Positions 3,666 to 52,966 of a DNA stretch of 64,000 bases are shown one piece after another. The DNA is taken from the IMG/VR virus record IMGVR_UViG_3300010413_000015, positions 10,952-74,951 of that record, one strand, 5' to 3'. Numbering within the stretch: the stretch's first letter is position 1; every line of letters begins with the position of its first letter. The notes beneath the pieces are model-generated. The model was not told the DNA's origin. It saw only the letters and a list, made by a program, of their open reading frames with translations, and searched no databases. A program made the translations under genes and the position numbers. This stretch comes from a virus.

Positions 3666-6600
3666 CTACGTCACGAATATCGCCGGGCACGGTAAGCTGA
3701 TTGCACCAGGGCTTCCCGTTTTCGCTACTTGAACGTACAGCATAAACTCCGACGCGGCAGTTAGCGATGTGCTGAGTCCCGTGCTCGAGTACATGTTCCA
3801 GGCATCGGCACTCATTGCAGATGTGTCGAAGCTCAACCTATTAGTTCCAGACCCATTTTTGAGGTTGATGGTCCAGTAGTTGCTAGCGTTGTTTGTTGTA
3901 TCCACCCAAACGGCCTGGTGCCAAGACCGGATTGTCATATCACGCGAGATGGTCCCGGCGTAAGGACGTCCGCCATTCGTGGTCATTTGATACGCAACGA
4001 GCGCATAGTTCCCGAAAGGGAACCAACCACTCATTCCCACATTGGACTGAACCATTCCAGCATCAGGGTCAACGTCAGTTGCGCCAGCATAGATTCCACC
4101 ATTCAGGATGATGTCATTATCATACCCTGCCCCAAGTGAGCCCACACGGAGACCTGCCTGAACCAGGGCATAACCTTGAGCAGGGTCCGTTGTCCCACCC
4201 ACTGTGAGTCCCCCGGCAATCGTGACGTCATTATCTGGCGGGTCATTCGTGGTGTCGCCAACTCGCAATCCGGCTCCAGCATATAGGTCGGTTGCCGTAT
4301 GTATCTTTATGGTCGTTTGCTCGACCGCCAAGACGTCAGATGCGCCGACCCAGAGTGTGATTCGGTCTGTAGTGCCAGACTCAATCTGGAGATAATTAGA
4401 AGTGGCCCCACTAACAGCCCGCAAGAATACTCTGGCATCCCCGGTGGTCAACGTGCTCTCTAGGTACAGGTCTGCGATGCTAGAGCCATATGCTGTCCAG
4501 ATGCCACCATAGTAGGTAGCACCGTCGTACCACGTTACCTTGTTTGCCCTTGCGGTGCCTGTGGCAAAGGTGAGGCCCAACGCATTCAGTTCGATAGCAC
4601 CAGCGCCACACACTAGAGAACCGTCTGTGTCAATGTATAGTTGAACCGTACCAGTCCCTGCCCTAAACTTCAATTGGCCTGTAGACCCACCACCATCAGC
4701 ATCCCACCACATATTTGCATGACCAGATCCTGTTTGTCCAAAGATGGCATCACCAGTTAAGCCTTCCAGCTTTATGATATCCGTACCACCCTTGCGCAAG
4801 AGCAGGTCGCCAGGGTCTGCGTCCCAAAAGAGGTTGGCCTTGCTAGCGTTATACTCGCCAAACCTTACATCTCCATCAGCTTGAAGTACGAGAGTGGCTA
4901 CGCTGTTGTTGTACAAGCTGATAGTTGTCCCGCTGAGGTCGATGTATGCACTGGTCGTAGAGTAAATCTTTAGGCCGCTTCCATCCCACAGGAGTTTACC
5001 GGCTGAAGCATTTCCTAGAAATAGGCGGGGTGTCCCGGCGTTGTACTCTAGCCAGTAGCCCGTGCCGGAATCGTAGGCCGTCGCCCCACATTTGAGGACC
5101 GCGCCTGTGGACATCGTAAGTGTGTTGTCCACAGTCAGTGCACCCGTGCTTGCGCTTACTGCCGCCAGGTTCGTGACGTCGATTTTCTCGGCAGTTACAG
5201 CATCAGCGGTCAGTTGGTCCGTGTCTACGGTTCCAGTCTGGATATTGCCACCGTTGATGTTCGTCACGCCTGAGCCGTCTCCGGCGATGACCAGGCCGTT
5301 TGTCGGGTCATACTTGAGATAGTCGCCACCGGAGTAGTTTCCAATGGCCATGCCCCAGGTCTCCGTAGAGTAGGGACCCCATCCATTTAGGTCACCCAGG
5401 CGGACAAGTTCTGTCTGCTGGTTGTACGAGGTACCCTGGCGTATCATTGAGATTCGCGGTCCACCTGTCTGTGCGTCGAGCTCTACCCTGCCGTCCCCAT
5501 CATAGCCAAGATTCACCCATACATGTCCCTGTGGCCAGGCATTGGCCCCGCTACCATCCAGGTTCCTGGTCACGGTGTAGATCGTGCCAGAGACAAAGGC
5601 CGTGACTTGCATGTATTCCACCTGGTTGTTGCCACGAAGCAGAATGAAATCGTTCACGGTGAGTGAGCTACCAAAGTCGATGTCTGTCTCAGTGTCGTCT
5701 ACATCCTCGGCCAGGGTACCAGATGAGTGCGGAACGATGAACCAGCCACCCATAACAGATGCGGTATTTTCCACAAACAGGATAGCTTCCATCTCGGACA
5801 ACCAGCCTTTCCGCCACAGGAGGGTTGAACTCCCTAGGTCATAGGTATCCGTTAGTAGGGGAATTAGATGCGAGTCAACTTTTCCGACGGAAAAGTTGCC
5901 GGAGACAGTGAGGTGCTGCAGAGTGAGTAGCCCGGCCGCTGTCGTAGCCAGAATGCTAGCCGTCGCACCGGGGCTGTTGCTGGAGTCGATGGCATGCACA
6001 TGGGTGGCCCTAGAGAATGACGTGCCAGTGCCCTCAGTGTTAGAACTGCTCACTGAGAGGTTTGTGCTTGGCGCTGCGGTACCAATTCCGTGTGTGTGGT
6101 CCCGACGAGCGGCAACAGAGGCGCTGCCTGTAGCAGACGAAGACGTGCCGGCAGCTATCGTTGTCGGTAGCGTTGTGTCAAAGACTACGAGTGTAGCATC
6201 CGAGCGAATCATGGTCTGGGCAGAACCTTCAGCATAGGCGGTGCCCAGCGAGATTGTTGGCGCTGCAATCAGGCTATCAATCTGTGTCCAGGCCAGGTCT
6301 CCTGTATGGTCAGTGCCAGAGAGGGTGTGCTGCTGGTTATGGTGGTCATTGGCCGAGACATCAGCAATGCTGTCATGGCTGATGTTGGCCTGGTTGATAG
6401 TGAAGGTCAGTATGTTTGTGCCTGCCACAATGCTGAGAATGTTGTTGGCACTTGTAAGTTGTATCCTGTCATCTGCAGCCGGAGTAACTGCCGTTGCGCT
6501 TGTGTCTTCAAGGCCTACAAAGCCGGCATGATGCTGGTCAGCGCTCACACTCCCAAGGTCAGTGTGCGACAGTTGCTGAAATGCTGCGGTGGTGGCTCCG

Positions 6601-8612
6601 GTGGCCCTCAGTACCTGTCCGGCCGTCAATCCACTAACAGTGTGGTAGGTGCCCAGACCACTAGTAGTGGCCAATACGTGGCTGCCGGTACCTGGCTGCT
6701 CATTGACCCACTTGCTGGTACCCGTGTTCCAGACGAGCGCATCCCCATTACTAAGGCTGCCCACATTCACATCTGTGTGCACAGCGCCGTCTGTAAGGCT
6801 GTGAGTGCCCGTGCCAGCTTCCAGGTCAATGGCAGTGTCTGTGCCATGCTTGACCTTCAGATGTCCGTCTGCAGTATCTACGTAGAGCTGCGCCCAACCT
6901 GTACCAACTCCCGTGGCACTGACCCCGTCCGTCACAAGAAGGCGTTCCAGGATGGCATTTCTCCATCTGGACTCCAAGTGACCCAGGTCCGTGCTGTTGT
7001 CTGTGGTAGGTACCAGGCTAGACCGGAACTTCCCTGTAGCGTCTAGCCACATGGTCCCATCCGCAGTCTTGATTCCCGCAATGTCGATTAGGAGCCCCTG
7101 TGGGGGACTTCCAAAGCTAGGGATGAGACCTGGTGTCCAGTCCGAGGGCCCCCATCCTTGCTCCAACATGGGCCGGTCGAAGCTGAAGTTCGTCGTTGAG
7201 GCTTGGGGAGCGCCTATGGACATGGTAATTCTCATGGCTGGGTGGTACCCGTCTGCGCCGGCAGGCGTAGTAACCTGTTGTGAGAGGCGAATCCACCCAT
7301 CTCCCACGTCGTCCTCTATAACCTCGCCCACCTCCGTTGCGTAAATCTCACTCTCGCCCGTCTTGTACCAGAAAACCTGTGGCGTGATGACGCTGTAGAG
7401 GTCTTGTCCTATGAGGGCGGGGTCCAACGATTGTAGAAAGTCCGTGCCGTAGCTAGGCTTTACGAACACAGATGCTGTAAAACGGTGCCCCTCCTTCGCT
7501 GCAAGAGTAATGGGCGCGACGTAGTCAGGCCCAAAGACGATGTCACAGGTCTGAACTTCACCCGAGGGTACCGTATCTAGATAGGGCCCAAACGTGACCT
7601 TAATGCCCTTGCCTCCCCCCAACCCAAAGTCACCGTAGCTCCAGGAGGAATAGGGGTTGCTCTGAAACCAGTCCTCAACCCACCAAAAGTCAGGGTAGGA
7701 CCCGACCTTTCGTTCCCAGTCTGCGTTGTAGGCCATCTGTACGCCCTTCTTCCGTCGGGCAAACCCTCGAATCCAGGGACTGGCTGCGAAGTCGCTCTCG
7801 TTGCCTGCCAGGTCCACACTCGTAAGGTTAAAGTACCGGGGCCGGCCGGGAGTCATTGAGATGAACACGTGAGAGCTGCTTGCCGTAGTGCTGGCCACAA
7901 AATCGTAGCCTCCAGTGGCGTATTCATCATCTGCCACGTACAGCATAAAGCTGTCGAGGTCGGGCGTCCCTGACTTTTTGGGCCCTGTCCATGCAATGCG
8001 GAGCCCGTCAGCCACACTCTCGATAGTCAAGTTCATGGGCGGGACAGGGGCCATGGTGTCTACAAGTAGCTCCGGACAGACAGACCATGGAGAGAAGTTT
8101 CCCCAGCGGTCTATCTCACGAACGCGAACCTGCAGCTTCATTGCCGGGAATAGGCTGAGATGCTCCTTTGAGGCCTCGAGTACCGGATAGGGTCCATACC
8201 CCCAGGCATGGCCAATCCTTCTGGCATCTACCTGGTAGGTGTCCAGGTCCATACGCTCTGCTGGGGTCCCTCCAAACTCCCAGACGAAGTAAGTGCCCCG
8301 GTGCGTCTGCTTGATGGCCAGTTCTTTGGGCGTTGGTGGCTCAGGCCTCTTTGCCGTTGCAGCATCCCTGGCTCCTGACCATTCAATGATGCCTGTCACA
8401 TACCACGTGCCGTGTGCGTCTACCCATGTGAGGAGCACTCGGTCGTTGCGGTGGATATCCTTTGCTGTCAGGGGGGCAGCTACAGGAACATTGCGGACCA
8501 ATTGCGTCCGGCCGGTCAGAAGCACCGTGACGGTGCTTTCCCCAACGAACATGACCCGGCCAACAGTTGTGCCTATGCTTGATGGTGTCTCAAGGAACGC
8601 TGCCTTTGCCAT
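3666..8612 (-). CDS. Large tail fibre / host-specificity protein
   Basis: 1648 aa; FN3-like segments (SVDLAGNESD), CBM-like region, Gly/Thr-rich beta repeats, HxH motifs (DHTHG, THVHA); position after the tail tip genes. Confidence 0.75.
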   Translation of the reverse strand: MAKAAFLETPSSIGTTVGRVMFVGESTVTVLLTGRTQLVRNVPVAAPLTAKDIHRNDRVLLTWVDAHGTWYVTGIIEWSGARDAATAKRPEPPTPKELAIKQTHRGTYFVWEFGGTPAERMDLDTYQVDARRIGHAWGYGPYPVLEASKEHLSLFPAMKLQVRVREIDRWGNFSPWSVCPELLVDTMAPVPPMNLTIESVADGLRIAWTGPKKSGTPDLDSFMLYVADDEYATGGYDFVASTTASSSHVFISMTPGRPRYFNLTSVDLAGNESDFAASPWIRGFARRKKGVQMAYNADWERKVGSYPDFWWVEDWFQSNPYSSWSYGDFGLGGGKGIKVTFGPYLDTVPSGEVQTCDIVFGPDYVAPITLAAKEGHRFTASVFVKPSYGTDFLQSLDPALIGQDLYSVITPQVFWYKTGESEIYATEVGEVIEDDVGDGWIRLSQQVTTPAGADGYHPAMRITMSIGAPQASTTNFSFDRPMLEQGWGPSDWTPGLIPSFGSPPQGLLIDIAGIKTADGTMWLDATGKFRSSLVPTTDNSTDLGHLESRWRNAILERLLVTDGVSATGVGTGWAQLYVDTADGHLKVKHGTDTAIDLEAGTGTHSLTDGAVHTDVNVGSLSNGDALVWNTGTSKWVNEQPGTGSHVLATTSGLGTYHTVSGLTAGQVLRATGATTAAFQQLSHTDLGSVSADQHHAGFVGLEDTSATAVTPAADDRIQLTSANNILSIVAGTNILTFTINQANISHDSIADVSANDHHNQQHTLSGTDHTGDLAWTQIDSLIAAPTISLGTAYAEGSAQTMIRSDATLVVFDTTLPTTIAAGTSSSATGSASVAARRDHTHGIGTAAPSTNLSVSSSNTEGTGTSFSRATHVHAIDSSNSPGATASILATTAAGLLTLQHLTVSGNFSVGKVDSHLIPLLTDTYDLGSSTLLWRKGWLSEMEAILFVENTASVMGGWFIVPHSSGTLAEDVDDTETDIDFGSSLTVNDFILLRGNNQVEYMQVTAFVSGTIYTVTRNLDGSGANAWPQGHVWVNLGYDGDGRVELDAQTGGPRISMIRQGTSYNQQTELVRLGDLNGWGPYSTETWGMAIGNYSGGDYLKYDPTNGLVIAGDGSGVTNINGGNIQTGTVDTDQLTADAVTAEKIDVTNLAAVSASTGALTVDNTLTMSTGAVLKCGATAYDSGTGYWLEYNAGTPRLFLGNASAGKLLWDGSGLKIYSTTSAYIDLSGTTISLYNNSVATLVLQADGDVRFGEYNASKANLFWDADPGDLLLRKGGTDIIKLEGLTGDAIFGQTGSGHANMWWDADGGGSTGQLKFRAGTGTVQLYIDTDGSLVCGAGAIELNALGLTFATGTARANKVTWYDGATYYGGIWTAYGSSIADLYLESTLTTGDARVFLRAVSGATSNYLQIESGTTDRITLWVGASDVLAVEQTTIKIHTATDLYAGAGLRVGDTTNDPPDNDVTIAGGLTVGGTTDPAQGYALVQAGLRVGSLGAGYDNDIILNGGIYAGATDVDPDAGMVQSNVGMSGWFPFGNYALVAYQMTTNGGRPYAGTISRDMTIRSWHQAVWVDTTNNASNYWTINLKNGSGTNRLSFDTSAMSADAWNMYSSTGLSTSLTAASEFMLYVQVAKTGSPGAISLPCPAIFVT
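5881..5893. repeat. 13-bp quasi-palindrome, copy 2
   Basis: TTTCCGACGGAAA, extended here to CAACT-TTTCCGACGGAAA-AGTTG. Confidence 0.95.
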
Positions 8613-9163
8613 TATTTCACCTTTGTCCCTATTGCCAGGAAATACAGCGATGTAGGTACCGTGCCATTGACGATGTAGGTGAAGCTATCCTTGCTGCCGC
8701 CAATGGCATTGACGATTGCATGGGACTCGATTGAGGCCGTGTGCTGTACCGTAAGGGTCACAGAAACCACCTCGTCGAACGCAAACCCTGGAGATGCCCC
8801 ATTCTCACTGAAGTAGATGGTGCCCGAGGACCCCGGGCTGCTCTTCTTCCCACCGAGGATGACAAACTGCCTTGGACTGGACCCTCCTACATACACCGCA
8901 CTGTTGTGCCCATGAACTCCACGGTCGTAGCCAGGGCTGTCGTCAAAGGCCTCCTCCGACCCATTCATGTGGGTTTCGATGTTGGAATGTGTGTGATACA
9001 GACCAGAGATAGCGCCTGTTTCCCCCAAGCTGGCGTGGTCTATCGCACCTCCCTCTCCATCGTGGTCATGGCCACCAGCTTGAGTAAGGTCGTTCCAGAT
9101 AGCATTGAACTTTGCGGCAGTAATCAACTCACCTGCCACTACCGGAGAACTTGTGATAGCCAT
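8612..9163 (-). CDS. Minor tail protein
   Basis: N-terminal VAGELITAAKFN, HDH motif, coupled to neighbouring genes. Confidence 0.6.
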   Translation of the reverse strand: MAITSSPVVAGELITAAKFNAIWNDLTQAGGHDHDGEGGAIDHASLGETGAISGLYHTHSNIETHMNGSEEAFDDSPGYDRGVHGHNSAVYVGGSSPRQFVILGGKKSSPGSSGTIYFSENGASPGFAFDEVVSVTLTVQHTASIESHAIVNAIGGSKDSFTYIVNGTVPTSLYFLAIGTKVK

Positions 9164-12100
9164 TACGCAAACTCCTTCTCGTCAAACTTGGCACTGGCGT
9201 CGTTGAAGGTAGTAGAATCTACTGAGAAGTCCCTAAGCCGGGTGATGACCTCGCAGTCAATGGCAGGTTTCCCCTCCTCATCGGTAGACATGGACCATAC
9301 AAACGCTGCGACCGCCCGGTCTTCGCTTCGGTCTGCATCGGTCCACCAGTCCTCAAGGAGAAGTGCCGGGTCTGGTGCGTGTAGCTTGTAGGATACCTCA
9401 GACGCCTGTTGTGAAACTAGGACCAGGGCCCTTCGTGCCCCCTCCATTGCCTCCACTTTCCCGCTGACCAGTGCCGGGTTGGAAATCTGGAGCATCCGGA
9501 GCGGCTTGCCTACTGCGGCCTCCCGGTCTAGGAGGTACACCCTGTCCTCCATGACTTCCATTTCAATGATACTTGCCTTGTCCTGTAGGGACATCTTCTC
9601 ATCTATGGCTGTGAGGTTGGTCGTGTAGTCCCCACTGTAGTACCCCTGGCTTCCCTCAAAGCGACTGATGCCCAGGTGCCCATTCTCGTTCTCAACCAGT
9701 TTTACCTGCTTGCCTTCAAAGAGCCTTCCCAAAGCCATAGACAGGTCCTCCCCAGAGTCCCAGGCAAAGGAGTCGAGGACCTCAGAGAACTCCGCATGGC
9801 TGCAAGAAGTAGTACTTACACCGTTGACTGCCAGGTACCCACTGGGCCATACGTGCTCCAGCGGAAACGCACACATAAGTGACCCCGTGGAATAGGCCGC
9901 AATGAAGTCCTTATTCCCTATAACGCGAATGAGGATGTCCCGATTGTCATTCCCCTGGTCTGGAGGCCGGAGGTATACCTGCTTCCCGAGATGGGTCTCG
10001 ACGTACTCCGGACTGGGAGAAGTGTCTCCTGTAGAAGTGATCCTGTACAGGTCGGCCTGGAGCTCTGCAAGTCTCAGCCGGAATCCAGAGTAGTGAGCGG
10101 GGCCGGTGGTGTTCTTGTTTGTCAGCCAGAAGTACACGTCAAGGTAGTTAGGAGAGTTTGTGAGCTGGTCACCTATCCAGGTCATGTCAATGCTGGTGTT
10201 CACCATGACACCATTCGAGACTCCGGGAGTGATAGAAACATCCCCCTGCACATCCTCGTCTAGCGTGATGCCGGCGAGCTCGAGGGCATTTCGGGCTATG
10301 TCCATGGCGGTCCAGACCGTAGTGTTCTCGTAGAACCAGATCCAGTCAAACAGGCACTGGGGAGCTAGTTTGCCGGTGCCGAACTGCTTGTAGACCCCAT
10401 AGGGAGTGCCGGGGACGGGAACAGAAGTGAAGTCTGGAGTGACATATAGGATTTCCCCACCATTAGTGGTGGCAACCTGTCGCTCCTGGTTGCCACAGAT
10501 TAACCACTTGCCTCCTAGTGTCTTTGGGAACGTCTGCCCGGTGTCCTGAATCCAGCCCGAGGTTGCACTGTCCACATCGCCATACTTGATGGCTCCCTCA
10601 TAGTCCTCAAAGTCCTCGACCACAAGGCCGAACTGGTAGTTTGCATCTGGCCAGGTGGGGGGCACCCAGTCCTCGTCGGCAAAGTCTGTAACCTGGACCC
10701 ACTCATCGTCCGTACTCTCCCGAAGAATGCGCACTTTGATGAATCCCTGGTCAGCAGCCACCGTCATTTGGTACCACTCATCTGTGTAGAAGTCAGGTCC
10801 TGTCCCCCAGGTGATCGGAGCGCTAACTACACCATCAATCACCTTGCGGAATACAATCCGCACGGGTCCGCTGTAAATGCGCGAGGCCCCGGCCATGTAG
10901 TAATTGTCTTCGTCCTTGTACCAGAAGGCCAGGTAAATGCCTTCCGCAGCAACCAGGGGCTTGAATCGAGTAGTAAAGAGAAAGCCTGGCGTTCCCAGAT
11001 TGTGGGGAAACAGCGCAAGGCCGGGCTGCTTGCACCAGAGCTGATACCTGGCTGACTCAGGGGACTTGTGCGTCACCCAGTCCCCTGTCACCTGGCGTAC
11101 CGTGAGACGAGGCTGACGATTCTCCATGTTGAAGTCACTGTACAGCCTATAGGGACTCTCATACATCTTTGTGCCCAGGGGCCTGTAGCTCAGGGACCCG
11201 GTAGCCCTGGCGGTTTTGCCAAGGGCAGTGACGTTATAGGCGCTACCAAGGGAGGTCTCAGTCAACTCGGCATCCACAACATCTGCTGTGCAGAATAGCC
11301 CTGTCTCCCCACTGGCGCCTATGACGACAGACAGCTCGTTGCCGGCAACGAGAAACGCCTCGATAGCAGCATCCTCCAACCCTGACGCGATGAACTCGGG
11401 CGCACTCCCAGGGCCTGAGTAATTGGCAGCGAATGAGGTAATAGTAGGGATGGTGTACCTCTCGGAAGAAGGGTCGGCCCCTATGGTAATATTGGCCTTG
11501 GCACGGGCGACAGAGGCATTCCCGATAAGGTAGACGTACTCATCTCCACTTCTGTAGAACAACTTGCCTCGCAACTCACTTGAGGTGACGAACCCCTCGT
11601 CCCGCCAATCTACCATGTTCTGGCTGGAAATGAGCCCAACGTGCCGGGCATAGGGCTCGTCATCCATTCCAACGGCCCACCTGGTGACTGTTGCCCAGGC
11701 CCGGTCTCCAATTGTATTCACCCCACTGACCTTAGCCCTCATGTTCCCCCACTGACTAGACGGAAGAACCTCAAAGGGCGCACTGGTGGCCCAGCTCTCG
11801 TGAAACAGGATGCTGGCCGAGCTCTCCGGGCCAAGGGCTTGCAGGACCACGCCGGCATTCCCGCCCCAGGGCCGCATGTTTGACGTAGTTGCCAGGCCTA
11901 CCCCGCCCCACTGGGCATCCATGTTGTGGAAGTCAGTCACTGGATTGGCCAGGGGGTAGCACTTCGTCGTAGGCCTCCAGTAGACAGGCCAGGTATCGTT
12001 GTTGTCCACCAGAGACTCAACAGCAAGCCAGGGCCCTACATAGTAAGTGGCCACTACGACAATCTCGCCGTCTATGAGAATGGCATTCAGCGAAACCGAC

Positions 12101-12642
12101 GATGGGTCGGCATTGAACCGCTGTGCAGACGGATAGTACCCTCCGGTTACTGGGGTGTGCCAGGTGTTGGTGCTAGGGGTGAACTTGTATCTCTTTATCC
12201 CCGAATCAGAGTTGCTCCAGTAGTAGACTCTGTATACCTCTGAGGTATAGGGGTAGTCTTGGTGCACCGCAATCTTGCAGTAGGGCTTGATGGTGAACGG
12301 GGCCGTGGTCTGGGTGAAATTCCAGCTCTCGCTTTGCCCCAACTGTGTGTGCCGGTAGTACAGCTTGTTGGAAGCAGATGTCCCCCACGAAGCTGGCGAG
12401 ACCATCTGAAACACCTTATAGGGACTTACTGCATTCCGGACAGAGTCTCCCCATACAGACTTTCCGGTACGGTCAAAGTAGTCATCACTGACGGCAATCC
12501 CACTGAGGGTTGCTTGCTCGACGTACAGAAGATTGCCAAAGTCAAGCCCGGTCTTGCGGATAGTCGCCATTACTGAAGGCTCAACCACTCTGTCTGCCAG
12601 GTACAGGTCGCGTAGGGTGCTGCTTATGGATGCACGACTCAT
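9163..12642 (-). CDS. Tail tip / hub protein with lectin-like insert
   Basis: 1159 aa, beta-rich, directly after the Dit-like gene. Confidence 0.6.
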   Translation of the reverse strand: MSRASISSTLRDLYLADRVVEPSVMATIRKTGLDFGNLLYVEQATLSGIAVSDDYFDRTGKSVWGDSVRNAVSPYKVFQMVSPASWGTSASNKLYYRHTQLGQSESWNFTQTTAPFTIKPYCKIAVHQDYPYTSEVYRVYYWSNSDSGIKRYKFTPSTNTWHTPVTGGYYPSAQRFNADPSSVSLNAILIDGEIVVVATYYVGPWLAVESLVDNNDTWPVYWRPTTKCYPLANPVTDFHNMDAQWGGVGLATTSNMRPWGGNAGVVLQALGPESSASILFHESWATSAPFEVLPSSQWGNMRAKVSGVNTIGDRAWATVTRWAVGMDDEPYARHVGLISSQNMVDWRDEGFVTSSELRGKLFYRSGDEYVYLIGNASVARAKANITIGADPSSERYTIPTITSFAANYSGPGSAPEFIASGLEDAAIEAFLVAGNELSVVIGASGETGLFCTADVVDAELTETSLGSAYNVTALGKTARATGSLSYRPLGTKMYESPYRLYSDFNMENRQPRLTVRQVTGDWVTHKSPESARYQLWCKQPGLALFPHNLGTPGFLFTTRFKPLVAAEGIYLAFWYKDEDNYYMAGASRIYSGPVRIVFRKVIDGVVSAPITWGTGPDFYTDEWYQMTVAADQGFIKVRILRESTDDEWVQVTDFADEDWVPPTWPDANYQFGLVVEDFEDYEGAIKYGDVDSATSGWIQDTGQTFPKTLGGKWLICGNQERQVATTNGGEILYVTPDFTSVPVPGTPYGVYKQFGTGKLAPQCLFDWIWFYENTTVWTAMDIARNALELAGITLDEDVQGDVSITPGVSNGVMVNTSIDMTWIGDQLTNSPNYLDVYFWLTNKNTTGPAHYSGFRLRLAELQADLYRITSTGDTSPSPEYVETHLGKQVYLRPPDQGNDNRDILIRVIGNKDFIAAYSTGSLMCAFPLEHVWPSGYLAVNGVSTTSCSHAEFSEVLDSFAWDSGEDLSMALGRLFEGKQVKLVENENGHLGISRFEGSQGYYSGDYTTNLTAIDEKMSLQDKASIIEMEVMEDRVYLLDREAAVGKPLRMLQISNPALVSGKVEAMEGARRALVLVSQQASEVSYKLHAPDPALLLEDWWTDADRSEDRAVAAFVWSMSTDEEGKPAIDCEVITRLRDFSVDSTTFNDASAKFDEKEFA

Positions 12643-13088
12643 AGCGGCAACCTCTGCACAATGCGCACTTCAGCAATAACCCATGTGCCCAAGGGGTCGT
12701 ACTCAAACTGTAGATTCAGGTCCCCTCGTAGTTGGCCTGGCCAGTATCCGTCATCTCCAAATGAGAGGACCTCAAGGTCTGTGGCCAGCCATGCGTCCAT
12801 AAGGTCATTGGCGTCCCCGACATAGATGTCTTCCTGGCCATCGTTCATGGTGGGATATGTCCCGTCTGGGGCCTGCACGATAAGCCTACCTGCCCATTGT
12901 TTGAAACCTCGTCTTGTGCCGACAGAACTCAGGAGGCGTCCATCATACAGGGATATGCCATAGCTAGTTGCTCCCTCGAAGATGGGCCCAGAGAAACCTT
13001 CTACCAAAACAGCGTAACACCGCTTCGAGGAGCCACTGTCCCACTTTAGGAAAAGTCCGCCCCTGCTGGTTGGAAACTCTATTGCCAC
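12639..13088 (-). CDS. Distal tail (Dit-like) protein
   Basis: 149 aa immediately downstream of the tape measure (synteny only). Confidence 0.5.
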   Translation of the reverse strand: MAIEFPTSRGGLFLKWDSGSSKRCYAVLVEGFSGPIFEGATSYGISLYDGRLLSSVGTRRGFKQWAGRLIVQAPDGTYPTMNDGQEDIYVGDANDLMDAWLATDLEVLSFGDDGYWPGQLRGDLNLQFEYDPLGTWVIAEVRIVQRLPL

Positions 13089-16000
13089 AATCCCCCCCTC
13101 ATTCTCTGCCTGGAGGCAGTCTTGTTCAGCTCTGCCTCAAACTTCCTCCATATCTCGGCCGCCAGTTGTCTCTCGTCCTGCCTCCCTCCTTCAACCGAGA
13201 TAGAGACGTTCATATTTCCGACGGAAAATCCGCTTGCGGTCAGCCTGCGGAGTGCCATGTTGGGGACAATGGTCCCATTCTGGTCTGGAACGAAAATCTC
13301 TGGTCCCACTTCACCCACCAGGTAACTACTCCCGGCTGTGACATCCCCCCCACCAGCCAGGCTGTTCCCGCTTCCACCTCCATCCCCTTGAGACTGGAAC
13401 ATACGGTTCAGGCGGTTCTCGATGCGGTCCAGAAGGTTCTGCCAGGCCTTGTCAAGGCTCGAATCCCTCTTGACGCTGCTCTCGAAGTGACCAATTAGGG
13501 TGTCCCACTTGCCCCAGAGGTCTCCGTCTTTCGAGAAATCGCTGAGCTGCTGCCTCAGGAAGGCAGCATAGGCATCTTGGGTCAGGTCCTGCAACCGCTG
13601 GTGCTCTATCTGGCCAGGGAAGACCACTTCCTCGAAGTACTTCTGTTCCTGGGTCATTTGGGCCAGGCGATACATCATATCGTCCTCAGCAATCTCTTGC
13701 TGTTTCGCGGCAATCGCCTGCTGCATCGCCGCCATAGCCTCTGCTTCTCCCATTTGCTCCTGGAGGTGCTTCATTTGCAGTGCAAACGACTCATCCATGT
13801 GCTTCTTGGAAAGGTCGAAGTTCTCCTGCATGTGTCGCTTCTGGAGCTCATAGTTCTGCGTCATGTGCTCCTTCTGCATCTCAAACTGCTCGGTCTCTAG
13901 ACGCTTGATATCTTCGTAGTGTGATTCCTGGTCTTTGAATGCCTGCGCCTGTTGGGCCCACAGCTTCTCCTGTCGCCCTTCCTCAACACCCCTACGCTTC
14001 TCAGAGACACCATAGTCCTCTTCCATACGTCCCCGCTGGCGGAGAAGCTCCTGCTTCTCGCGCCCGGAGGCGAAGCGAATGGCCCGGTTGATATCTTCCA
14101 TCCCACGGGTGTACTGCACCCCAGCCTGTTGCCGGTTGAACGCCATATCTTCACGGCCCCAGCGCTGGCCCTGCATCATCTGTTGCCATTGAACACCGAA
14201 CTGCCTTCTCTGGAACTCGGTGTTGACACCCCACATTCTCTGGCCTAGGGCAAAAGACGCTTGCTGTTGGGCATAGCCCTGCTCCAGGCTCTCCGTCCCT
14301 TGCTGGAAACCAAGGTTCAGCCGTTCCTGGCCCTGGCGATACTGAAGGCGAGCGCTCTCCATGGCTCGCTCAATACCGGCCCTCTGCTGTTGCGCTGCCA
14401 TTGCCGCAGCCGCAGCCTGCATTCCGTACAGCTCTCGGGACTGTTCTAGCTTCAGTTCCGCTCGCTGGATTTGGCCTATCATGCCCATCTGGTAGGTTCT
14501 GCCACCATAGCTAGAGGTTGCCCACTGGCCAGTGCCCATGCGGTATGCCTGGCTCTGGCGTAGTTGGTTCCAGGACAGCGCCCTTGAAGCAAGCTGGCCT
14601 ATGCCGTAGATACCACCACCAGGCCCTATCTCGTGTAAGGGCATAGCCCCCTCCACCAGGGGCATCCCCATAGCACTACGGAACCCACCTACGGCCCCCT
14701 GTGCCTCTGCGCCAAAGACCCCTTGGGCCGCACTGTATCCCAGGGCAGAGCTGGCAAAGTTGGCCATCTCCCCAAACTGGGCGTACTCGAAGGGAGTCAT
14801 CTGTCCAGAGGCTAGTGCTGCCTGCAGGCCCTGCTCAAACTGCCCGGCTACTGCCCCGGCCATGCCAAACCCTCTGGCCACAGCTCCTTGGCCCATTACA
14901 GACTGGGCCCATACCTGGCGAGCTGCAGGAGAAACGCCACGGGCTGCCATTGCCTGAACCCGGCCCTGCAGGGCTCGGGCATTTCCGCCGAGGTACTGGT
15001 AGATTTGACCCCCAAGGCCGGCCGCAGCCTCATATTGGGCCATTCCCTGAGCGCTTTGCCATGGAGCATTGGCCATGAACCCTATGGCTTCTGGACTTCC
15101 TGCCGCAAAGCCATACTCTTGTGCCGCACCAACGCCAATGGCTGCCTGTTCCCTCCGAAGCATCTGCTCTGGGGTTACACCCGGAGGGGTATAGATGACT
15201 CGCCCGTCAGGGAGCTCAACCATTTGGCCTTCAAGTTCCTGCTGTAGCCCCTGATAGTATCGGGCCGCAGCCTCTGGACCAAGGCCGCGCATGTCTGCGA
15301 ATGTGCGATACTGGCTGGCAATCTGTGCCGTGGCTCCACCAACTGCTGCGGTCTGAGGACCAAGTGTTTGCCCGATTCTCTGAGCTACTGCACTACCAGG
15401 TGTATACCCCATGGCAGAGACAATGGGCTGCATGCCATACCGGGCCTCTTGAAGAGCTGCAAGCTGGGTGGTTGTGACCCCACCAGCAAGCTGGCCCATG
15501 TACTGCTGTAGCATTTGTCCTGATACTCCAACTCCTATCTGTTGGAGTTGTCCTGCAACCCCTGAGGCCATGAGGAAGTTCTGTTGCCCGGCTGCTGTTG
15601 TTGGGATGTAGGGAGACAGGGCCCACATCCCTGCGCCCGTCCCGATCCCCAGATACTGGCTTACTTGCTTTAGGGTAGAGGCCATCCCGGGAAGCTGCCC
15701 ACTAATGGCTGCTGGCCCGAGCTGCTTGGCCAGCTCATCTACTCTTCCTTCGTACACGGCCTTTGGCCCGTATCCGAGCTCGGCCAGATAGCTGAAGGTT
15801 TCGTACTTCTTTGCTGGGTCTAGACCTGGAATATCCAGGTTTTCGATGTGGAGGCTGGCCCGGTCAATCTCTATCTGGCCAGACTTCACATACTGCGCAA
15901 CACCCTCGCGCAGTTGGCCTGCGTAGTCCTTGTCCAGAATCGAGCGCAAGCCCATGCCAACCCCTGTCCCAAGAGAGAGGTCGCCCTTGGTAGGCGAGCC

Positions 16001-19000
16001 CCCACCAGCCATGCCCTTGAGCCAGCTAAAGGCACCTCTCTGCGTCTCAGGCTCTGTGGCCAGACCGAGAAGCTCCCGGTAGACATTTCCGGGGGCAGCC
16101 TGTTCATAGGCCTGCCCAAGGAGAAGCCCCCCGGTCACAACGCCACCTGCCAGGGCGGCGATTGGGCCCATTCTAGAGCCTATTCCCATCATACCTCGCC
16201 CTAGAAGGCTTTCTCCCCCTAGCGTCTTTCCGAATCTGCCGAGCACTGACGCGGCAATGCCGGCTTTCGCACCAAACTCGAGTCCCTTGAGAATAGGTCC
16301 ACCAACTGCACCCAGTCTTTCACCGGCCCCATATGCGCCAGAGGGACCACCTAGCGTTGCCAGTATCTCACTGATACCAGCTTGCCCTCGAAGTGTGCCC
16401 ATACCGAAGCCCTGGGCGAAGGCCTGCTGGCCAGCCTGGGCCTGCATAATCCTGCCCATGGGACTATCCATAATGGACTGTGCAGTACCCCCCATCTGTG
16501 TAGCAAACCCTATCTGGGCACCAGCAAGCCCCCGTGCCTGTTCCATAGCACGGTTCACTGGTCCCCCAAAGATTCGCTCGGCCGCTGTCCAGCGGAAGTA
16601 TGCACCGCCAAAGGAGAACTCCTGCAGGAGCTGGTCGAGGCCCTGGCCAAGTGTGCCACGCATGCCCTGTGGTCTCTTGGGAGCCGGCCTGCCCCTTTGT
16701 CCACCGGTAGCCTCATAAAGGTCGTACTGGAACTGCAGGGCGTCTCGTGTTTCCACAGCGCCGATAGTCTCTGTGAGGGCTGGCTCGTTCTCGATCTTCT
16801 CCAGTTTCCTGCCAAGACGTTGCATGTTTTGGGTTACTGTCGCAACCACATCTTGGGGGACACCTGCTGCAGTCAGACCCTGTGGACCAACTTTTGCCCA
16901 TTGCTCCCTAATGTCCTGGGCCTGGCGGAAGGTCTTGGTGAAGGACTGTGCATCTTTCAGCATCTCCTTCTCGGCCCGAGTCAGGTCTCTCTGTACGGCA
17001 ATGGTCTCCCTAAGCTCTGGGGTCCACTGCTTCAGATGGTCTGCCACCTCATCCAGGGTCTTCCTCATCGACCCTGACATCCACAATCCCAACTCCCAGG
17101 GCTTCCCGCTTCCGGCTGTCTGCCGGGGGTTCAGGTCACGTTGCTGTTGCCCCTGAGAGGGCGGTACAATTGGTGCGCCGGGGTCTACACCCGGAGGCAC
17201 CCAGTTAGGGTCAAAGTTGGGGCCGGGCATCCCCGCCAGGGGGTCTGCCGGGTCAACTGGTGGCCTGTTGGGAGGCGGGGGAGCACCGGGAGGCGCAGCC
17301 ACTGTAGGCCTGGCGGCTGCCGGCCGTCGGCCTGCCTGTTGGAGATGTCTCCTAAGCTGGCCAGGTCGCGTAACTGGGGACTGAGCCATTGCAGGTGCTG
17401 CAGTCGCAACCGGAGGCGTAGGCTGTGTGGCTGCTGGTTGAGTCACCTCAGTTGGTGGTGTAAGATTGGGTTCCGGCCCCATCTCTGGTGGCGCCACAGG
17501 GACCCTAGGTGCTCGCTCTGGGTGTGGGCTCTCTGCAACTGGAGGTTCTGCACCAGGTGTGGCTAGCCAATCTGCCATCCCAGACGCTTCCAGGGCCACT
17601 GCTTGTTCCTCAATACTGACCCCTTGTCCGGCCCCCTTCTTCAAAGCAGTAAGCCTGTCTTGCATCTCTGACTTAAACCTGAGAAGAGTGTCGGCCAAGT
17701 CCCGGCCCACGCTCCTGGCCCCAAACTCTCCGTACAGGTTGGCACCGTGCTTCTCTGCATACCGACTAACGGCTCCTGCCCACTGCCCACCGATTGCCTG
17801 TCCAGAGGCGGCCTCCCTTACCCAGTCCTCATGTGTCTGACCAGCCTTCATCATTCGGGGAAGAATCTTGTATCGCTGCTCGGGTGCGGAGAATCGCTTG
17901 AACATCATCGCAAACTGCTGGGCCTGCTTCTGGTTAGGCCCGGAGAACATTGCACCCGCTTCTTCGGGAGACACAACTCCCTGCTGTACAAGCTCGGCAA
18001 AAGCGCCGACACTCTCCTTGCGAAGTCCTGCAAGGTTTCGCAAGGTTCCGGTGCCTACTTTCTCCCATTCCCCGGTGCTGCGCATAAATGCCTTGCCCCA
18101 GGTAGTGGTATTCATGAGCGCATGAACACTCATGACGTCCTGGGGGGGGATGGCGGGTCTCTGAGTATACCCATAGCTGCGGTTCCAGATAGACTGTACG
18201 GCAGACCTGGCTGTTTGGCCTACCTTCCCAGGAATCTGGAGTGCCCTACTCATAAGCCTTCGCATGTCCTGGAATCCAGGACCTATTGCATTGTAGAGCT
18301 CCCGGTTTTCCTGAACAAGTTCCTCGACCTTGCCCTCATCCATGGTATGGTAGTCAAGGGCCTTTCTCCTGACAATCTCCATGGCCGCTTGTAGGTCTTG
18401 GTCTCCGGGAACCATCTCAGCAGGGAGGCTTCCAGCGCCCTCAGACTGCACACGCTTGCGCCCAATCTCACGTACTCGTTCTGGAGAAAGCTCTACACCA
18501 GCGGCGTCGTAGAACTTGCTACCTTGCACCTGAGCCCCACCAGTCATCAGGGCATAGGCAATGTCTGCGTCAAAGTCGCCGCCAGCCATACCCTGTAGGT
18601 ACTCTGACACTACCATCCGGTTGGGGTCATAACCTAGGCCCTCGATAAGCTCTCGGGACACAGTAATGCCCTGAGCTGCACGGTCAAAGCTGGACTCTCC
18701 CTGAGTGGGGAAGCGAATCATGAAACCTGCTTGCCCGGCCTCACGGTCTGGCAGGTACATCTCATTGATGCCCAGTGCCTTAGAGCCAAGCACCTTGTAC
18801 CCCTCCAGGTACCTCCTGCCAGGTGTTACTCCCTGGGCCCGTCGGAGGCCCTGCTCGGACTCAGAAATCTTGCGTTGCTCCTCCATGACGGTCCTGCGAT
18901 ACTCGACAAACGGCGCCTTCTCCTGATTCAGAAGGGACCGGACCATGCCAAACTGCCCTCTAAGGTAGCGAGAGACCTCTGTTTGTTCGAGGGCACCTTC

Positions 19001-35587: not shown

Positions 35588-36682
35588 CTATGTGAAGAGA
35601 AGCGCCCAGTTGACAATGCCGGCAGCATAAGCTGCCAGGATTTTGTCAAACTCGCCTGGTACAAAGCTGTCACTGCCATCTAGGATATTCAGCATGGCTC
35701 GTCCTAGCCGGTGGGCCTGGTCGGCCACAGTGCCAGGACCGACCTCCCCCTTGGCCTCATCAACGAGTCTAACCAAGTAGGGCTGGACTAGGTTGGTGAG
35801 ATGCTCAGAAAGCATCTCCTTGTGCATGTCGCCTTCCTTGACGTGGTGTACAAGGGGGGCACCTACCGTAGCAACCATGCCCCTTATGTCCATGATGGTC
35901 TTGAGGATGTACATGCTCCACACATCATCATGCCGGCGGACACGGAACCCGGAAGGGGTGAAGTAGTCGGGGGGCTGCCAGAATGCTGGAACCAGGGAGG
36001 CAACCATTTGCACGTTCATGATGGACAGCGGCAACTTCTGTCCATAGGCCAATGCCACGTACTCTTGGGAAAGCTTTCGGTCGGCGGTAGCCTCGTCTCC
36101 GTTTAACTTGTCGATGCCATTGATGTCGGCTGTGCCAGTCCACAGCCCCTCGTTGAATGAGGGGGCTACAATCTTCTGAAGGCCCTTGTAGGCCTCCTCG
36201 CCACGGTACTCATAGGGATACCCTCGTGCCCACATCCTCTTCTCACCGAGCTGTCCCAGTGGGTTGTACCAGCCGGACAGTGTGTAAAACGTGTCAGCTG
36301 CTACTTCCCTGCCTATGGGGATTTTGTCTATGAAGTCGGGGGTGACTCGAGTATCGCAATCATCGTCCAAGAGGATGATGATATCATGCTTCTCCTTGGC
36401 TGCGTAGTACAAGCCGAATGCCTTACACGAGGGGTTGCGTCGTGCAATCCACATGCCTGCATTTGGCAAGTATGCCTCCTGGTCGCTATGGGTGAATAGC
36501 TTCATGTTCTTTGGCATGGGCCCCCTCTCCGCCATGCCATTCGAGTCATCCACCACAATGATTTCAGCGACTCTGTCCAGCAATGGGTCAAGATACTCAA
36601 CCGGAAATGCCCTCACGCTGGGAATCACCACACAGTACGTAGGGTCCCTCATTGTCTCGCGCATCCTTCCCTCCTTGTCCAT
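35588..36682 (-). CDS. RGP / UDP-arabinopyranose-mutase-like (GT75-like) protein
   Basis: IILLDDDC, ARGYPY, GLWTGTADINGI, RRHDDVWS resemble reversibly glycosylated polypeptide motifs. Confidence 0.65.
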   Translation of the reverse strand: MDKEGRMRETMRDPTYCVVIPSVRAFPVEYLDPLLDRVAEIIVVDDSNGMAERGPMPKNMKLFTHSDQEAYLPNAGMWIARRNPSCKAFGLYYAAKEKHDIIILLDDDCDTRVTPDFIDKIPIGREVAADTFYTLSGWYNPLGQLGEKRMWARGYPYEYRGEEAYKGLQKIVAPSFNEGLWTGTADINGIDKLNGDEATADRKLSQEYVALAYGQKLPLSIMNVQMVASLVPAFWQPPDYFTPSGFRVRRHDDVWSMYILKTIMDIRGMVATVGAPLVHHVKEGDMHKEMLSEHLTNLVQPYLVRLVDEAKGEVGPGTVADQAHRLGRAMLNILDGSDSFVPGEFDKILAAYAAGIVNWALLFT

Positions 36683-45362: not shown

Positions 45363-45405
45363 CTTGACACTCCATCATAGGGGGAGTACTTGATGGAGTG
45401 TCAAG
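45363..45405. repeat. 15-bp perfect inverted repeat at the late/early divergence
   Basis: CTTGACACTCCATCA-N13-TGATGGAGTGTCAAG. Confidence 0.9.
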
Positions 45406-50638: not shown

Positions 50639-50767
50639 AGAGGGCTGTGGCTCTCTCTTTTTCTGTCCCCCCTGTAGGGGGACGATCCTTACCGGGTACC
50701 TCCATACCCGGGCGCGACAGGACGCCTTCCTGTCAGAGAACTAAGCTTCAAATGGAAGGAGGGCCAG

Positions 50768-52966
50768 ATGAAGCTCGCCGTTCTCGCAATTCTCACCCTG
50801 GTGTGGGAGGGGACCGTGCCGTACCTCCACACACTCTACGAGGCTCTCGTGGGAGAGCCTCTGGCAGTAGTCCAGGTCAGCACCAAGCCCAAGCACCGCC
50901 AGTGGATGACACGCCTGCTGGTAGGGCTTCAGGACAAGGGGTGGCACCTGGACTTTGCCACAAGTGCCAGAAAGAGCGGACAGGCCATCATTTCCCAGAC
51001 TGGGAAAGTGTCCTCGCTCTTCTGGCGCACGGCTGAGGAGGCCATTGCCTATGGCAGTATCCTTCTCACGCCGTGCTGGGGTGCGTACCCCCAGTCCATG
51101 ACCCTGAAGGTTCGGGTGGTGGAGGATGGGGAGTACGACACCGGGGATTGCCACGGCAAGGCGAGCCGGGCAGTCTATGCCGCCCTTGGTGGTGTTGTGC
51201 AACAGGCCGCACAGTTCCGCCTAGGGGTCCTGGCCGGTGGCTTGCTGGCCAAGGGCACATTCTGCATCCCAGATGTGTCCCTCGCCTGGCCAGACGGGGT
51301 AGACCTGATTCTGCCCCGGAGCTGCTTCAAGAGCAGCAACAAGCCTGGCCCTGGCACGTATACCTGGGACCTGGTCCTGGGTGTCGTGAACTGGAGCAAG
51401 CCCACCCCGACCAAGATGGGCTGGCAGATGCTCCAGTGGTTCAGTTGGGCAGCGGTAGAGGCCGACATCCTTCCCAGGGTCAAGGAGGGAGCAGCCCAAC
51501 TGGTTGCCGCCCTGGCAGATGTCAGGGCACTTGCCGAGCTTCTCCGGCTATACTCTGTGCCCAGCATCGACACAGAGGACGGGGAAGATGACCAGGCCGA
51601 GGTCTTGCTCATCGACGTTCTCCGAGCAGACCACAGTGGCTACCTGTCCCGGCACCCACACGTAGTTCGGCGGGTGAGCGACATGCTGCGCCGACGGTGG
51701 CAGCACCTCGCAACCGGTGGTGGGCAGTTCCTGACCGGCCTTATGGGGCTACCGGATGACACCCTGCCATTCGGGGTGGTGGCCACCAGCGACATCCCTG
51801 TCGGAGATGTCCTTGTGACCCGGTATCCCATCAGGTTCTGGGGTGACGTTCGGAAATGGGTCAACGTCGCGCCCGTCCAGAGCCTCAAGGGCACCATCTG
51901 GATGTCCCATGAGACCGCTGCCGTGCTGGGTGGCGATTTCGACGGGGACTACTTCCAGGTGGTTCCGTCAGCCACCTATCCCGCCCTGTCCCAGGACATG
52001 GAGAACTGGGCCGACCGCCCCACTGTGAATGTGGTCAAGGTCAAGGATAGGAGGGCCACCCCCCTGAGTGCCCAGGGGCTGGCCGAGGTCTTTATGAGCA
52101 ATGTGGACAACATGGTGGGTAATGTGGCCCTGCTCATTGCCCGTGCTGGCGCTGCCGGCAACCATAACGCAGTTGTCCAACTTGCCCAGGAGTTGCAGGT
52201 CGCCGTTGACAAGTTCAAGTTCAACGTAGACAACGACACCGACTTCATTGATGCCTGCAACACGTCCATTCCAGACCTCACATGGGCATGGGACCGTGAA
52301 CACCGCGATGCCTACCATGCCCGGCCGATGAAAGTGCACGAGCGGGATATGGACACCATATCCTGCCTCATCCGGGAGGTCAATGCCCTGTGGGTTCCTT
52401 ACCAGGGTATGGCCCTTCCCCTATGGCACTTCACCGGCCTGTTCTCCAAGCCCGACCAGCACATGGATGCAGCTCGTGGGCTGGCAGTGAGGTATGCTGC
52501 CAATGTGCGCACGGCTCTCCGTGCCGGGGACAAGAAGGCCATCTCTAAGCTCTTCAAATCCCTGGAGGCGTGGTCGCGGCAGGTGGAGAATCCGACCGAG
52601 TGGGCTGCTGCCATCTGGCATGCGGTTCACGCGGAGAATGCCAAGGGCACCGGCTCGCTGGCCTTTGCTGCGTTTCCGACGGAAATTGCAGAGAGGGTGG
52701 CCAGCCTGCCGTCCACCCCCGAGGCACCGCGCAATGCCACCATTGTTGGCCTGGAGAAGAACGAGTGGGCCAACAACGCGAACGACCTGGTAGGTGAGCA
52801 GCAGGTGATGTTCGATATCACCACGTTGCATGGCCAGGTCCGGTTCTCCGCCGTGGTAGACGGGCGGGTGGTCGGCATTGTCTCCAAAGAGACCCCTGTC
52901 CCCCAGGGGACATTCACCATGGGTCTCACGGTAAAGGGCGCTTGCGTGTACGCGAGTGCCTCCTAG
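50768..52966 (+). CDS. Single-subunit two-barrel RNA polymerase (YonO / cellular-RdRP-like), non-virion
   Basis: TGDCHGK, QFRLG...LAKGT, VTRYP, LGGDFDGDYF (51935-51949), LQVAVDKFK. Confidence 0.85.
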   Translation: MKLAVLAILTLVWEGTVPYLHTLYEALVGEPLAVVQVSTKPKHRQWMTRLLVGLQDKGWHLDFATSARKSGQAIISQTGKVSSLFWRTAEEAIAYGSILLTPCWGAYPQSMTLKVRVVEDGEYDTGDCHGKASRAVYAALGGVVQQAAQFRLGVLAGGLLAKGTFCIPDVSLAWPDGVDLILPRSCFKSSNKPGPGTYTWDLVLGVVNWSKPTPTKMGWQMLQWFSWAAVEADILPRVKEGAAQLVAALADVRALAELLRLYSVPSIDTEDGEDDQAEVLLIDVLRADHSGYLSRHPHVVRRVSDMLRRRWQHLATGGGQFLTGLMGLPDDTLPFGVVATSDIPVGDVLVTRYPIRFWGDVRKWVNVAPVQSLKGTIWMSHETAAVLGGDFDGDYFQVVPSATYPALSQDMENWADRPTVNVVKVKDRRATPLSAQGLAEVFMSNVDNMVGNVALLIARAGAAGNHNAVVQLAQELQVAVDKFKFNVDNDTDFIDACNTSIPDLTWAWDREHRDAYHARPMKVHERDMDTISCLIREVNALWVPYQGMALPLWHFTGLFSKPDQHMDAARGLAVRYAANVRTALRAGDKKAISKLFKSLEAWSRQVENPTEWAAAIWHAVHAENAKGTGSLAFAAFPTEIAERVASLPSTPEAPRNATIVGLEKNEWANNANDLVGEQQVMFDITTLHGQVRFSAVVDGRVVGIVSKETPVPQGTFTMGLTVKGACVYASAS
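52673..52685. repeat. 13-bp quasi-palindrome, copy 10
   Basis: TTTCCGACGGAAA in the RNAP gene. Confidence 0.95.

Follow-up and report, generated by a model that had tools for sequence, protein, structure and literature searches.

The 64,000-nucleotide (nt) stretch of viral DNA analyzed here, referred to as the window, is part of IMG/VR virus record IMGVR_UViG_3300010413_000015 (positions 10,952 to 74,951), a 74,951-bp linear record from an uncultivated metagenomic contig estimated to be 86% complete. In the tape measure slot of its structural genes, the window encodes a 2,689-amino acid (aa) protein whose N-terminal domain is, with high probability, a two-barrel RNA polymerase (RNAP) fused to a tape measure protein. 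As judged from the predicted fold, the first ~1,150 residues very probably represent a working single-chain RNAP of the cellular two-barrel type, followed by a Pro-rich linker and by the tape measure itself. That the fused polymerase also acts as an injected virion polymerase, as described for Thermus phage P23-45, is likely when both parts are taken as one claim, and the full mechanism proposed below for its delivery and use we regard as fairly probable. The components of the fusion are as follows.

13079..21148, minus strand: fusion open reading frame (ORF), comprising RNAP module, Pro-rich linker, and tape measure protein
17744..21001, minus strand: predicted two-barrel RNAP module, aa ~50–1135, from the AlphaFold2 model and superpositions
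19589..20731, minus strand: predicted beta-like half, aa ~140–520, with a flap-like domain (aa 273–346) and the presumed second double-psi beta-barrel (DPBB-B)
19169..19342, minus strand: ComEA-type double helix-hairpin-helix domain, (HhH)2, aa 603–660, in the inter-barrel connector (Pfam HHH_3)
18509..18817, minus strand: predicted catalytic barrel (DPBB-A), aa ~778–880, with G783, L792, RFPT (P814), and the DFDAD loop
18563..18577, minus strand: DFDAD metal-binding loop, aa 858–862, with three invariant Asp
18113..18337, minus strand: long helices at aa 938–970 and 974–995, then Q996-R997-P998, from the secondary structure of the model
17129..17560, minus strand: Pro-rich low-complexity linker, aa ~1197–1340, with 30 Pro in aa 1201–1300
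13079..17128, minus strand: tape measure proper, aa 1341–2689, from composition, a hydrophobic segment, and weak family matches

Catalytic motifs and their conservation

The original prediction had recognized polymerase motifs in the protein's N-terminal part, and all of them were found where it had placed them: LGSKALG begins at aa 787 and RFPT begins at aa 812, whereas DFDAD occupies aa 858–862 (nt 18563–18577). By itself the motif is mildly unusual and proves little, as 0.13 occurrences of DxDxD are expected by chance in the fusion protein, and the pattern [RK]xPx{20,100}DxDxD, which is the filter of Chaban et al., was present in 217 of 5,000 shuffles of this protein. Its weight comes from conservation and fold. 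A word-index search yielded one homologue, and an exhaustive HMMER search covering 1.84 billion cluster representatives recovered ~30 clusters with homology to aa 1–1196 outside the HhH domain (best P0004, E = 1.9e-93), the remaining matches, many in number, being ComEA-like HhH proteins. These homologues are mostly 2,100–3,200 aa long, about 25 of them keep the fusion layout, and every full-length one carries DxDxD at the equivalent position.

We next aligned 26 sequences of this family, with a mean column identity of 18%. The only invariant columns were G783, L792, P814, D858, D860, and D862, i.e., all three aspartates of the loop, whose conservation had been singled out as a check, are retained in 26 of 26 sequences. 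The alignment follows the pattern G...L..E.Y.P...R[FY]P[TS]...S....Q...GDxDGD, which, at the level of sequence, has the order of the beta-prime catalytic double-psi barrel, in agreement with the motif order first read from the window. Position 4 of the DFDAD motif, described earlier as a variant, is Ala in the window protein, a state shared by 5 of the 26 sequences including this one (Gly in 20, Ser in one), but the variant is unremarkable because this position also varies in other phage and viral polymerases, e.g., DVDID, DQDPD, and DNDKD (Chaban et al., PMC10770324). The N-terminal half contains three invariant basic residues, K209, R210, and K362, and two that are almost invariant, K357 and K390. 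A QRP triplet at aa 996–998 is conserved in almost all sequences (R997 in 25/25, Q996 and P998 in 24/25). Finally, comparison of the fusion family profile with the profile of a PF05183-type polymerase family, to which a second polymerase encoded in the window belongs (see below), gave an hhalign Prob of 72.5 (E = 3.3e-5) across 83 columns of the catalytic barrel, with RxP...DxDGD in register.

Predicted fold of the N-terminal module

An AlphaFold2 model of aa 1–1196, built with the family alignment, reached a mean predicted local distance difference test (pLDDT) score of 79.7 and a predicted template modelling score of 0.78. Searched against the PDB with Foldseek, 48 of the 48 matches listed were second-largest subunits of RNAPs (beta, Rpb2, A135), with E-values of 4e-5 to 7e-4 and probabilities of at least 0.93, mostly 1.00. 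In an independent comparison with VIA-align across 48,161 representative chains, QDE-1 ranked first (Z 11.5 over 372 residues, model 133–1117), and further matches included P74-26 gp62 (Z 10.2), maize RDR2 (Z 8.9, or 8.9–11.4 when re-alignment of the Foldseek list is included), and PolD DP2 (Z 6.0). Superposition on P23-45 proteins, suggested earlier as a check, was obtained for both gp96 and gp64. The former aligned with Z 8.3 in PDB 8H2N (264 aa, root mean square deviation (rmsd) 5.0) and Z 8.2 in 8H2M, placing model residues 142–1014 on gp96 327–1074, and the latter, in the re-alignment of the Foldseek list, reached Z 10.0 over model 139–1117.

The chains of multi-subunit enzymes divide the model in two. 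Beta/Rpb2/A135-type chains, together with the beta-like subunits of phiKZ and AR9, align to residues 36–723 and mostly end at 516–523, and beta-prime-type chains align to residues 754–1175. Within these segments, beta-flap domains match aa 273–346 (VIA-align Z 5.1), while designed DPBB proteins (7dww, 7dvc) and CDC48-N DPBB domains match within aa 774–895 (Z 5.1–6.5), the designed proteins covering 780–869. A double-psi barrel is thus predicted around RFPT and DFDAD (residues ~778–880), as anticipated. According to the model, a single chain thus combines the two halves of a two-barrel polymerase, beta first and beta-prime second, as in QDE-1, YonO, gp64, and gp96. The beta-like half (aa ~140–520) would be joined by a connector to the beta-prime-like half (aa ~755–1135), and in the latter the catalytic barrel, with DFDAD as its Mg-binding loop, would be followed by bridge-helix-like and trigger-loop-like helices. 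The two long helices modelled after DPBB-A are presumed to correspond to these elements from their order and length.

A domain of this fold may not be a DNA-dependent transcriptase, and could instead be an RNA-dependent polymerase, a primase or PolD-like DNA polymerase, or a retired structural domain. Template and product specificity is unreadable from the fold, the top fold matches are RNA-dependent RNA polymerases (RdRPs; QDE-1 at Z 11.5, RDR2 at Z 8.9–11.4), and PolD DP2 was matched as well. However, gp62 and gp64 (Z 10.0–10.2) match nearly as well as QDE-1, PolD is a much weaker match, and a double-stranded DNA phage offers no obvious RNA template at entry. The phage members of this fold class are moreover DNA-dependent RNAPs, YonO among them. 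The same is established for phi14:2 gp66 and for gp64 and gp96 of P23-45 (PMC10770324). As for a retired enzyme, the invariant DxDxD and RxP signature speaks against it. Overall, we consider a function other than DNA-dependent transcription very unlikely.

A ComEA-type domain in the inter-barrel connector

Between the beta-like half and the catalytic barrel, the window protein carries a (HhH)2 insertion, a domain of the type that binds double-stranded DNA, that is unique to it, being found in none of the 25 aligned homologues. Residues 603–660 match HHH_3 (PF12836; E = 5.2e-16, 58.9 bits against a cut-off of 27) and TIGR00426 (54.4 bits against a cut-off of 53.1), and ComEA (8dss) is matched both by sequence (E = 1.3e-8) and by fold (Z 7.0, rmsd 2.5, 45% identity; model 604–665). 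The element found at the connector position in other two-barrel polymerases contributes to the clamp. In P23-45 gp96, whose architecture is flat and clamp-less, the connector is short and disordered (aa 613–679; PMC10770324). Judging from its family and position, the HhH domain may hold duplex DNA near the active-site cleft, as a DNA grip or as a substitute for the clamp. In ComEA, the HhH domain belongs to a periplasmic DNA receptor, whereas here it is inserted inside a predicted polymerase.

A more speculative possibility, which we hold to be doubtful, is that the fusion acts as a machine that imports DNA in a transcription-coupled manner. A channel through the envelope would be formed by the tape measure part, the Pro-rich tether would keep the polymerase at the cytoplasmic mouth of this channel, and the HhH domain, located at the clamp position of other two-barrel polymerases, would grip the incoming duplex; transcription and ComEA-like ratcheting would then draw in the genome during reading of the first genes. 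If true, this would mean that a competence-type DNA receptor had taken the place of a clamp, in a family that is widespread among phages of sediment and soil.

Linker, tape measure, and integrity of the fusion

The two halves of the protein are separated by the Pro-rich linker, as first described from positions ~17130–17560, and pLDDT drops below 50 in the AlphaFold2 model from aa 1135 onward. The tape measure character claimed for the C-terminal half is also borne out. These ~1,350 aa are rich in Gly, Ala, and Gln, include a hydrophobic segment at aa 1660–1681 (nt 16106–16171), and contain a Gln/Glu-rich, Pro-free region at aa ~2230–2500 with a coiled-coil look as judged from composition. Matches to known families were weak, both for PHROG 5062 “tail length tape measure protein” (E = 0.006) and for NCBIfam NF047706, the LIC12611 phage tail protein (E = 3.7e-5, far below the family cut-off), and the C-terminal region can be aligned with the C-termini of the homologues. 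A PDB search with the C-terminal 373 aa gave no match, and a word-index search with aa 1345–2689 among shorter proteins returned a fragment of the same protein and two weak matches, a result uninformative on polymerase-less relatives. In phage lambda, tail length corresponds to ~1.5 Å per tape measure residue; by this rule, a tail of ~200 nm would result from the C-terminal 1,350 residues by themselves.

The genes upstream are consistent with this assignment. Tail tube, chaperone, tape measure is the usual gene order and is kept in the window, where the single ORF lies in the tape measure slot as originally proposed, preceded by the following genes.

22021..23136, minus strand: tail tube protein gene (Pfam PF18906 Phage_tube_2, E = 5.9e-12)
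21138..22033, minus strand: two overlapping chaperone-slot ORFs (21446–22033 and 21138–21665) in a -1 frame relation

The first chaperone-slot ORF is 46% identical to the equivalent ORF of a relative (G001, see below). A scan of the chaperone-slot overlap for a canonical XXXYYYZ slippery heptamer found none, and the genes downstream of the fusion ORF gave no family matches, including none to Dit.

Given an uncultivated, linear, and incomplete (86%) metagenomic source record, we asked whether assembly or gene calling could have joined two separate genes. The reading frame runs through 8,070 nt (13079–21148) with no stop or frameshift, and contigs from three metagenome studies (that of the source itself and two independent of it) match the parts of the gene they cover at 99% identity or above, with no indel in any of them. 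The linker is spanned by a contig that the source's study obtained from another sample (16963–18300), and the polymerase/linker boundary along with the DFDAD codons by a contig from an independent study (17474–19103). Because these linker- and boundary-spanning contigs agree, and because the fused layout recurs in ~25 homologues drawn independently from assemblies of JGI, NCBI, ENA, and Logan, an artefact appears extremely improbable. Several studies contain near-identical DNA, in metagenomes of marine sediment, of soil, and of other origin, and the public runs listed for it include no RNA run.

A complete relative and an independent phage lineage

Homologue P0004 is encoded by IMGVR_UViG_3300009081_000001 (hereafter G001), an 87,059-bp genome with direct terminal repeats that is rated complete. 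All-against-all BLASTP indicated that G001 and the window genome share a syntenic structural module, with identities of 56% for the tail tube, 55% for the portal, 43% for the terminase, and 28% over 1,296 residues for the tape measure/polymerase fusion. The order of tube, chaperone-slot, and fusion genes is kept in G001, the first two being located at the start of the record and the third at its end, as expected if the map is joined into a circle. Searches for related loci recovered only this genome, from P0004, and none for the window protein, P0002, or P0160 among viral contigs or for P0012 among genome contigs.

The same all-against-all comparison with the proteins of P23-45 (OP542242) revealed no resemblance to the window genome except for a weak 65-residue terminase match, and the fusion design is therefore found in a phage lineage unrelated to P23-45. 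Together with a non-significant profile comparison to gp96, this upholds the view that the window holds a second, very divergent case in a different lineage.

Comparison with known phage polymerases

In P23-45, full-length gp96 is present in virions, and its residues 1–1200 are an active RNAP (Chaban et al. 2024, PMC10770324). This virion polymerase transcribes the pre-early genes, including the one for the non-virion polymerase gp64, and its fusion to the tape measure, documented in P23-45, P74-26, G20c, and TSP4, was called “a previously unsuspected association” (PMC10770324). The window protein resembles gp96 in several respects: the polymerase fills the first ~1,150–1,200 residues of the tape measure ORF in both, DxDxD is located at aa 779 in gp96 and aa 858 here, the folds superpose (8H2N Z 8.3; PDB 8H2M, 8H2N), if less well than with gp62, gp64, and QDE-1, and both genomes encode a second phage polymerase elsewhere. 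In contrast, there is no significant sequence similarity (hhalign Prob 0.3), the window protein is 2,689 aa long compared to 5,002 aa for gp96, no metallopeptidase domain was detected in it, and its connector holds a folded ComEA-type HhH domain, unlike the short, disordered one of gp96. In addition, the partner polymerase is of RdRP/YonO type and not a gp64-type paralogue, and near-identical DNA comes from marine sediment and soil, compared to a hot spring habitat for P23-45. The fusion protein is thus best described as an independent family with the gp96 architecture, outside the gp96 sequence family.

Other two-barrel enzymes share the fold in a different setting. The best phage fold matches, P23-45 gp64 and P74-26 gp62 (PDB 8F72, 8F5M), superpose over 330–340 residues across both barrels, yet these are free-standing ~600-aa enzymes found outside virions, whereas the window polymerase is fused to a tape measure; for gp64, the catalytic barrel is in register, with non-significant sequence similarity (hhalign Prob 3.4). 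The QDE-1/RDR2/YonO class (PF05183) shares the single-chain two-barrel organization and includes the best overall fold match, QDE-1, but QDE-1 and RDR2 are eukaryotic RNA-dependent enzymes with no fusion to a structural protein, and the window domain misses PF05183. Delivery of a polymerase with the DNA for early genes, within a giant virion protein, is known for phi14:2 gp66 (PDB 6VR4) and N4 vRNAP (PMC10770324). Unlike the window protein, both are internal proteins of podoviruses and not tape measures, and N4 vRNAP is T7-like, not two-barrel. The 6VR4 structure was not among the VIA-align or Foldseek matches listed, which is not evidence of difference.

A literature search found no paper describing a second tape-measure/polymerase family. 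Separately, the predicted structures in BFVD that resemble the polymerase model include A0A075BUT7_2, A0A172Q0S6, and A0A8S5SD80_1 (E = 2.5e-7 to 2.9e-5). In Microcystis phage MaMV-DC and in Acinetobacter phage ME3 the proteins concerned are uncharacterized, and in Siphoviridae sp. ctnpt50 the annotation is “Minor tail protein”; all may represent additional phage polymerases that lack annotation, some being associated with tails. Neither Microcystis phages nor phage ME3 nor “minor tail” proteins are entered in the supplement of the P23-45 paper.

A second polymerase and a model for early transcription

A second polymerase gene closes a block of small plus-strand ORFs that is divergent from the structural genes.

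50768..52966, plus strand: 732-aa RdRP/YonO-type two-barrel RNAP with RYPIR...GGDFDGD, a candidate non-virion RNAP

Its product matches Pfam PF05183 (E = 9.5e-10, 38.2 bits against a gathering score of 23.8) and PHROG 34895 (E = 1.5e-42), and 23 homologues of it were recovered. Some of these are ~1,200 aa long, among them a protein of a Pleurocapsales cyanobacterium. A terminator-like GC hairpin with a T-run behind it (50637–50658, plus strand), ~110 nt upstream of the gene, suggests that it may have its own promoter.

We infer the activity, packaging, ejection, timing, and template of the fused polymerase chiefly by analogy with P23-45 gp96, which leads to the following scenario. The N-terminal ~1,150 residues would form a complete single-chain two-barrel polymerase, tethered through ~140 Pro-rich residues to an ordinary-looking tape measure of ~1,350 residues. 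The fusion would be made late and built into the tail together with the tape measure, as for gp96. A polymerase encoded inside a late structural gene, if it is to be useful early, must be carried into the next cell, and at infection the fusion would, following the same precedent, be expelled into the host envelope or cytoplasm. There, as gp96 and the presumed timing suggest, it would transcribe the first-entering genes without host RNAP, after which the RdRP/YonO-type polymerase (50768–52966) and/or the host RNAP would take over.

Several observations weigh against this interpretation, at the level of either the enzyme or its delivery. No sequence method ties the N-terminal domain significantly to a curated RNAP family. 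Searched against Pfam, the domain matches only HhH, with no PF05183 match at E-values up to 1; the N-terminal part against PHROGs, phmmer against the PDB, and the whole-family profile against the PDB returned HhH or coiled-coil noise and no polymerase; and hhalign against the single sequences of gp96 (1–1200) and gp64 was not significant (Prob 0.3 and 3.4), even if the top local alignment in both cases was the catalytic motif in register. Likewise, tblastn of aa 1–1196 against 50,697 phage records gave HhH matches only. The lack of a significant match to gp96 or gp64 fits the observation that RNAP families share little beyond the DxDxD region (Chaban et al., PMC10770324). On the structural side, Z-scores of 8–11 are good without being overwhelming for a model of 1,196 residues, a second barrel (DPBB-B) is presumed solely from superposition of the whole model and the catalytic lysines are putative, and the second half of a domain-only AlphaFold2 model of aa 340–530 fell below a pLDDT of 50, probably due to the fragment aligning badly against full-length homologues. 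As for delivery, a folded domain of ~125 kDa does not obviously fit the lumen of a siphovirus tail tube. Moreover, a two-polymerase cascade does not appear to be fixed in the family: searches of G001 with P0003 as query, with the [RK]xP..DxDxD filter, and with Pfam on candidate ORFs yielded no second polymerase, and because this complete relative has the fusion with no detectable second polymerase, the pairing is optional. A PF05183 search of G001 also gave no match, but control genomes gave none either.

The polymerase may then be real and yet not virion-delivered. In such a scenario, cleavage of the linker, prior to tail assembly or in its course, would free the polymerase to work in the producing cell, e.g., on late genes, and the particle would receive only the C-terminal tape measure. 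The difficulty of housing a folded ~125-kDa domain in a tail tube fits this scenario, as does the linker itself, 140 disordered, Pro-rich residues that make a plausible protease target, and many tape measure proteins are known to be processed. However, the fusion is kept in about 25 divergent homologues, which a mere need for co-expression would hardly explain, and the window genome already has a separate soluble polymerase. In G001, where no other phage polymerase was detected, the fusion is the only candidate for host-independent early transcription. In P23-45, the one case studied, the polymerase is found in virions within full-length gp96 (PMC10770324). On balance, we see cleavage and retention in the producing cell as unlikely, and favor delivery of the polymerase with the tape measure.

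Other features of the window

Three exact copies of a short motif, TACAACYGAATA, at 46220, 46756, and 48543, together with two-mismatch variants at 49209 and 54007 (all plus strand), lie just 3′ of stop codons in the early-looking region, some being followed by hairpins with a GCCYTMATTGC-like loop. The motif was considered as an early promoter candidate and set aside: at two mismatches, 6 occurrences were observed in the window compared to 3.35 expected, which is not beyond chance, G001 has a single copy, and one copy abuts a twister ribozyme. This twister-P5 ribozyme (Rfam RF02684; 57.3 bits, with the cut-off at 37.6; 46235–46300, plus strand) is located in the plus-strand block of small ORFs and begins directly 3′ of a TACAACTGAATA motif. 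TACAACYGAATA may be a phage-polymerase promoter or, because one copy abuts the ribozyme, an RNA-processing element. In the divergent intergenic region between the structural (minus-strand) and early-looking (plus-strand) blocks, a perfect 14-bp inverted repeat at 45364–45404 (TTGACACTCCATCA, 13 nt, TGATGGAGTGTCAA) could function as an operator, as a promoter of the hairpin type, or as a terminator acting in both directions.

Two giant ORFs of 1,159 and 1,648 aa that lie downstream of the tape measure (3666–12642, minus strand) have no Pfam or PHROG match and are kept in G001 at 27–30% identity; they presumably encode baseplate or fibre proteins. The structural module also includes glycosyltransferase genes (23049–24239 and 35588–39450, both minus strand). 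These comprise a GT1 gene that adjoins the tail tube gene and is 48% identical in G001, and, near the portal at 35588–39450, a GT2-methyltransferase fusion and an RGP-like protein. Their presence in this module suggests virion glycosylation. Finally, a 131-nt Rfam tRNA match (50.5 bits; 63776–63906, plus strand), not called by ARAGORN, is presumably a tRNA gene with a long insert.

Implications

So far, a polymerase fused to a tape measure has been published only for P23-45 and its close Thermus-phage relatives. Here, the same design is seen in a mesophilic phage of sediment and soil with no detectable sequence relationship to P23-45, and in a family of ~30 protein clusters in which the catalytic residues are strictly kept. 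This suggests that polymerase delivery on the tail ruler is a recurrent solution and not a thermophile curiosity, and many of the “giant tape measure proteins” in databases may similarly hide enzymes. With 2,689 aa in total, this smaller, mesophilic enzyme may be easier to study, and it offers a natural HhH variant at the clamp position. Questions raised by the P23-45 work thereby become testable in a second system, namely how a large polymerase travels with the tape measure, and whether transcription is coupled to DNA entry.

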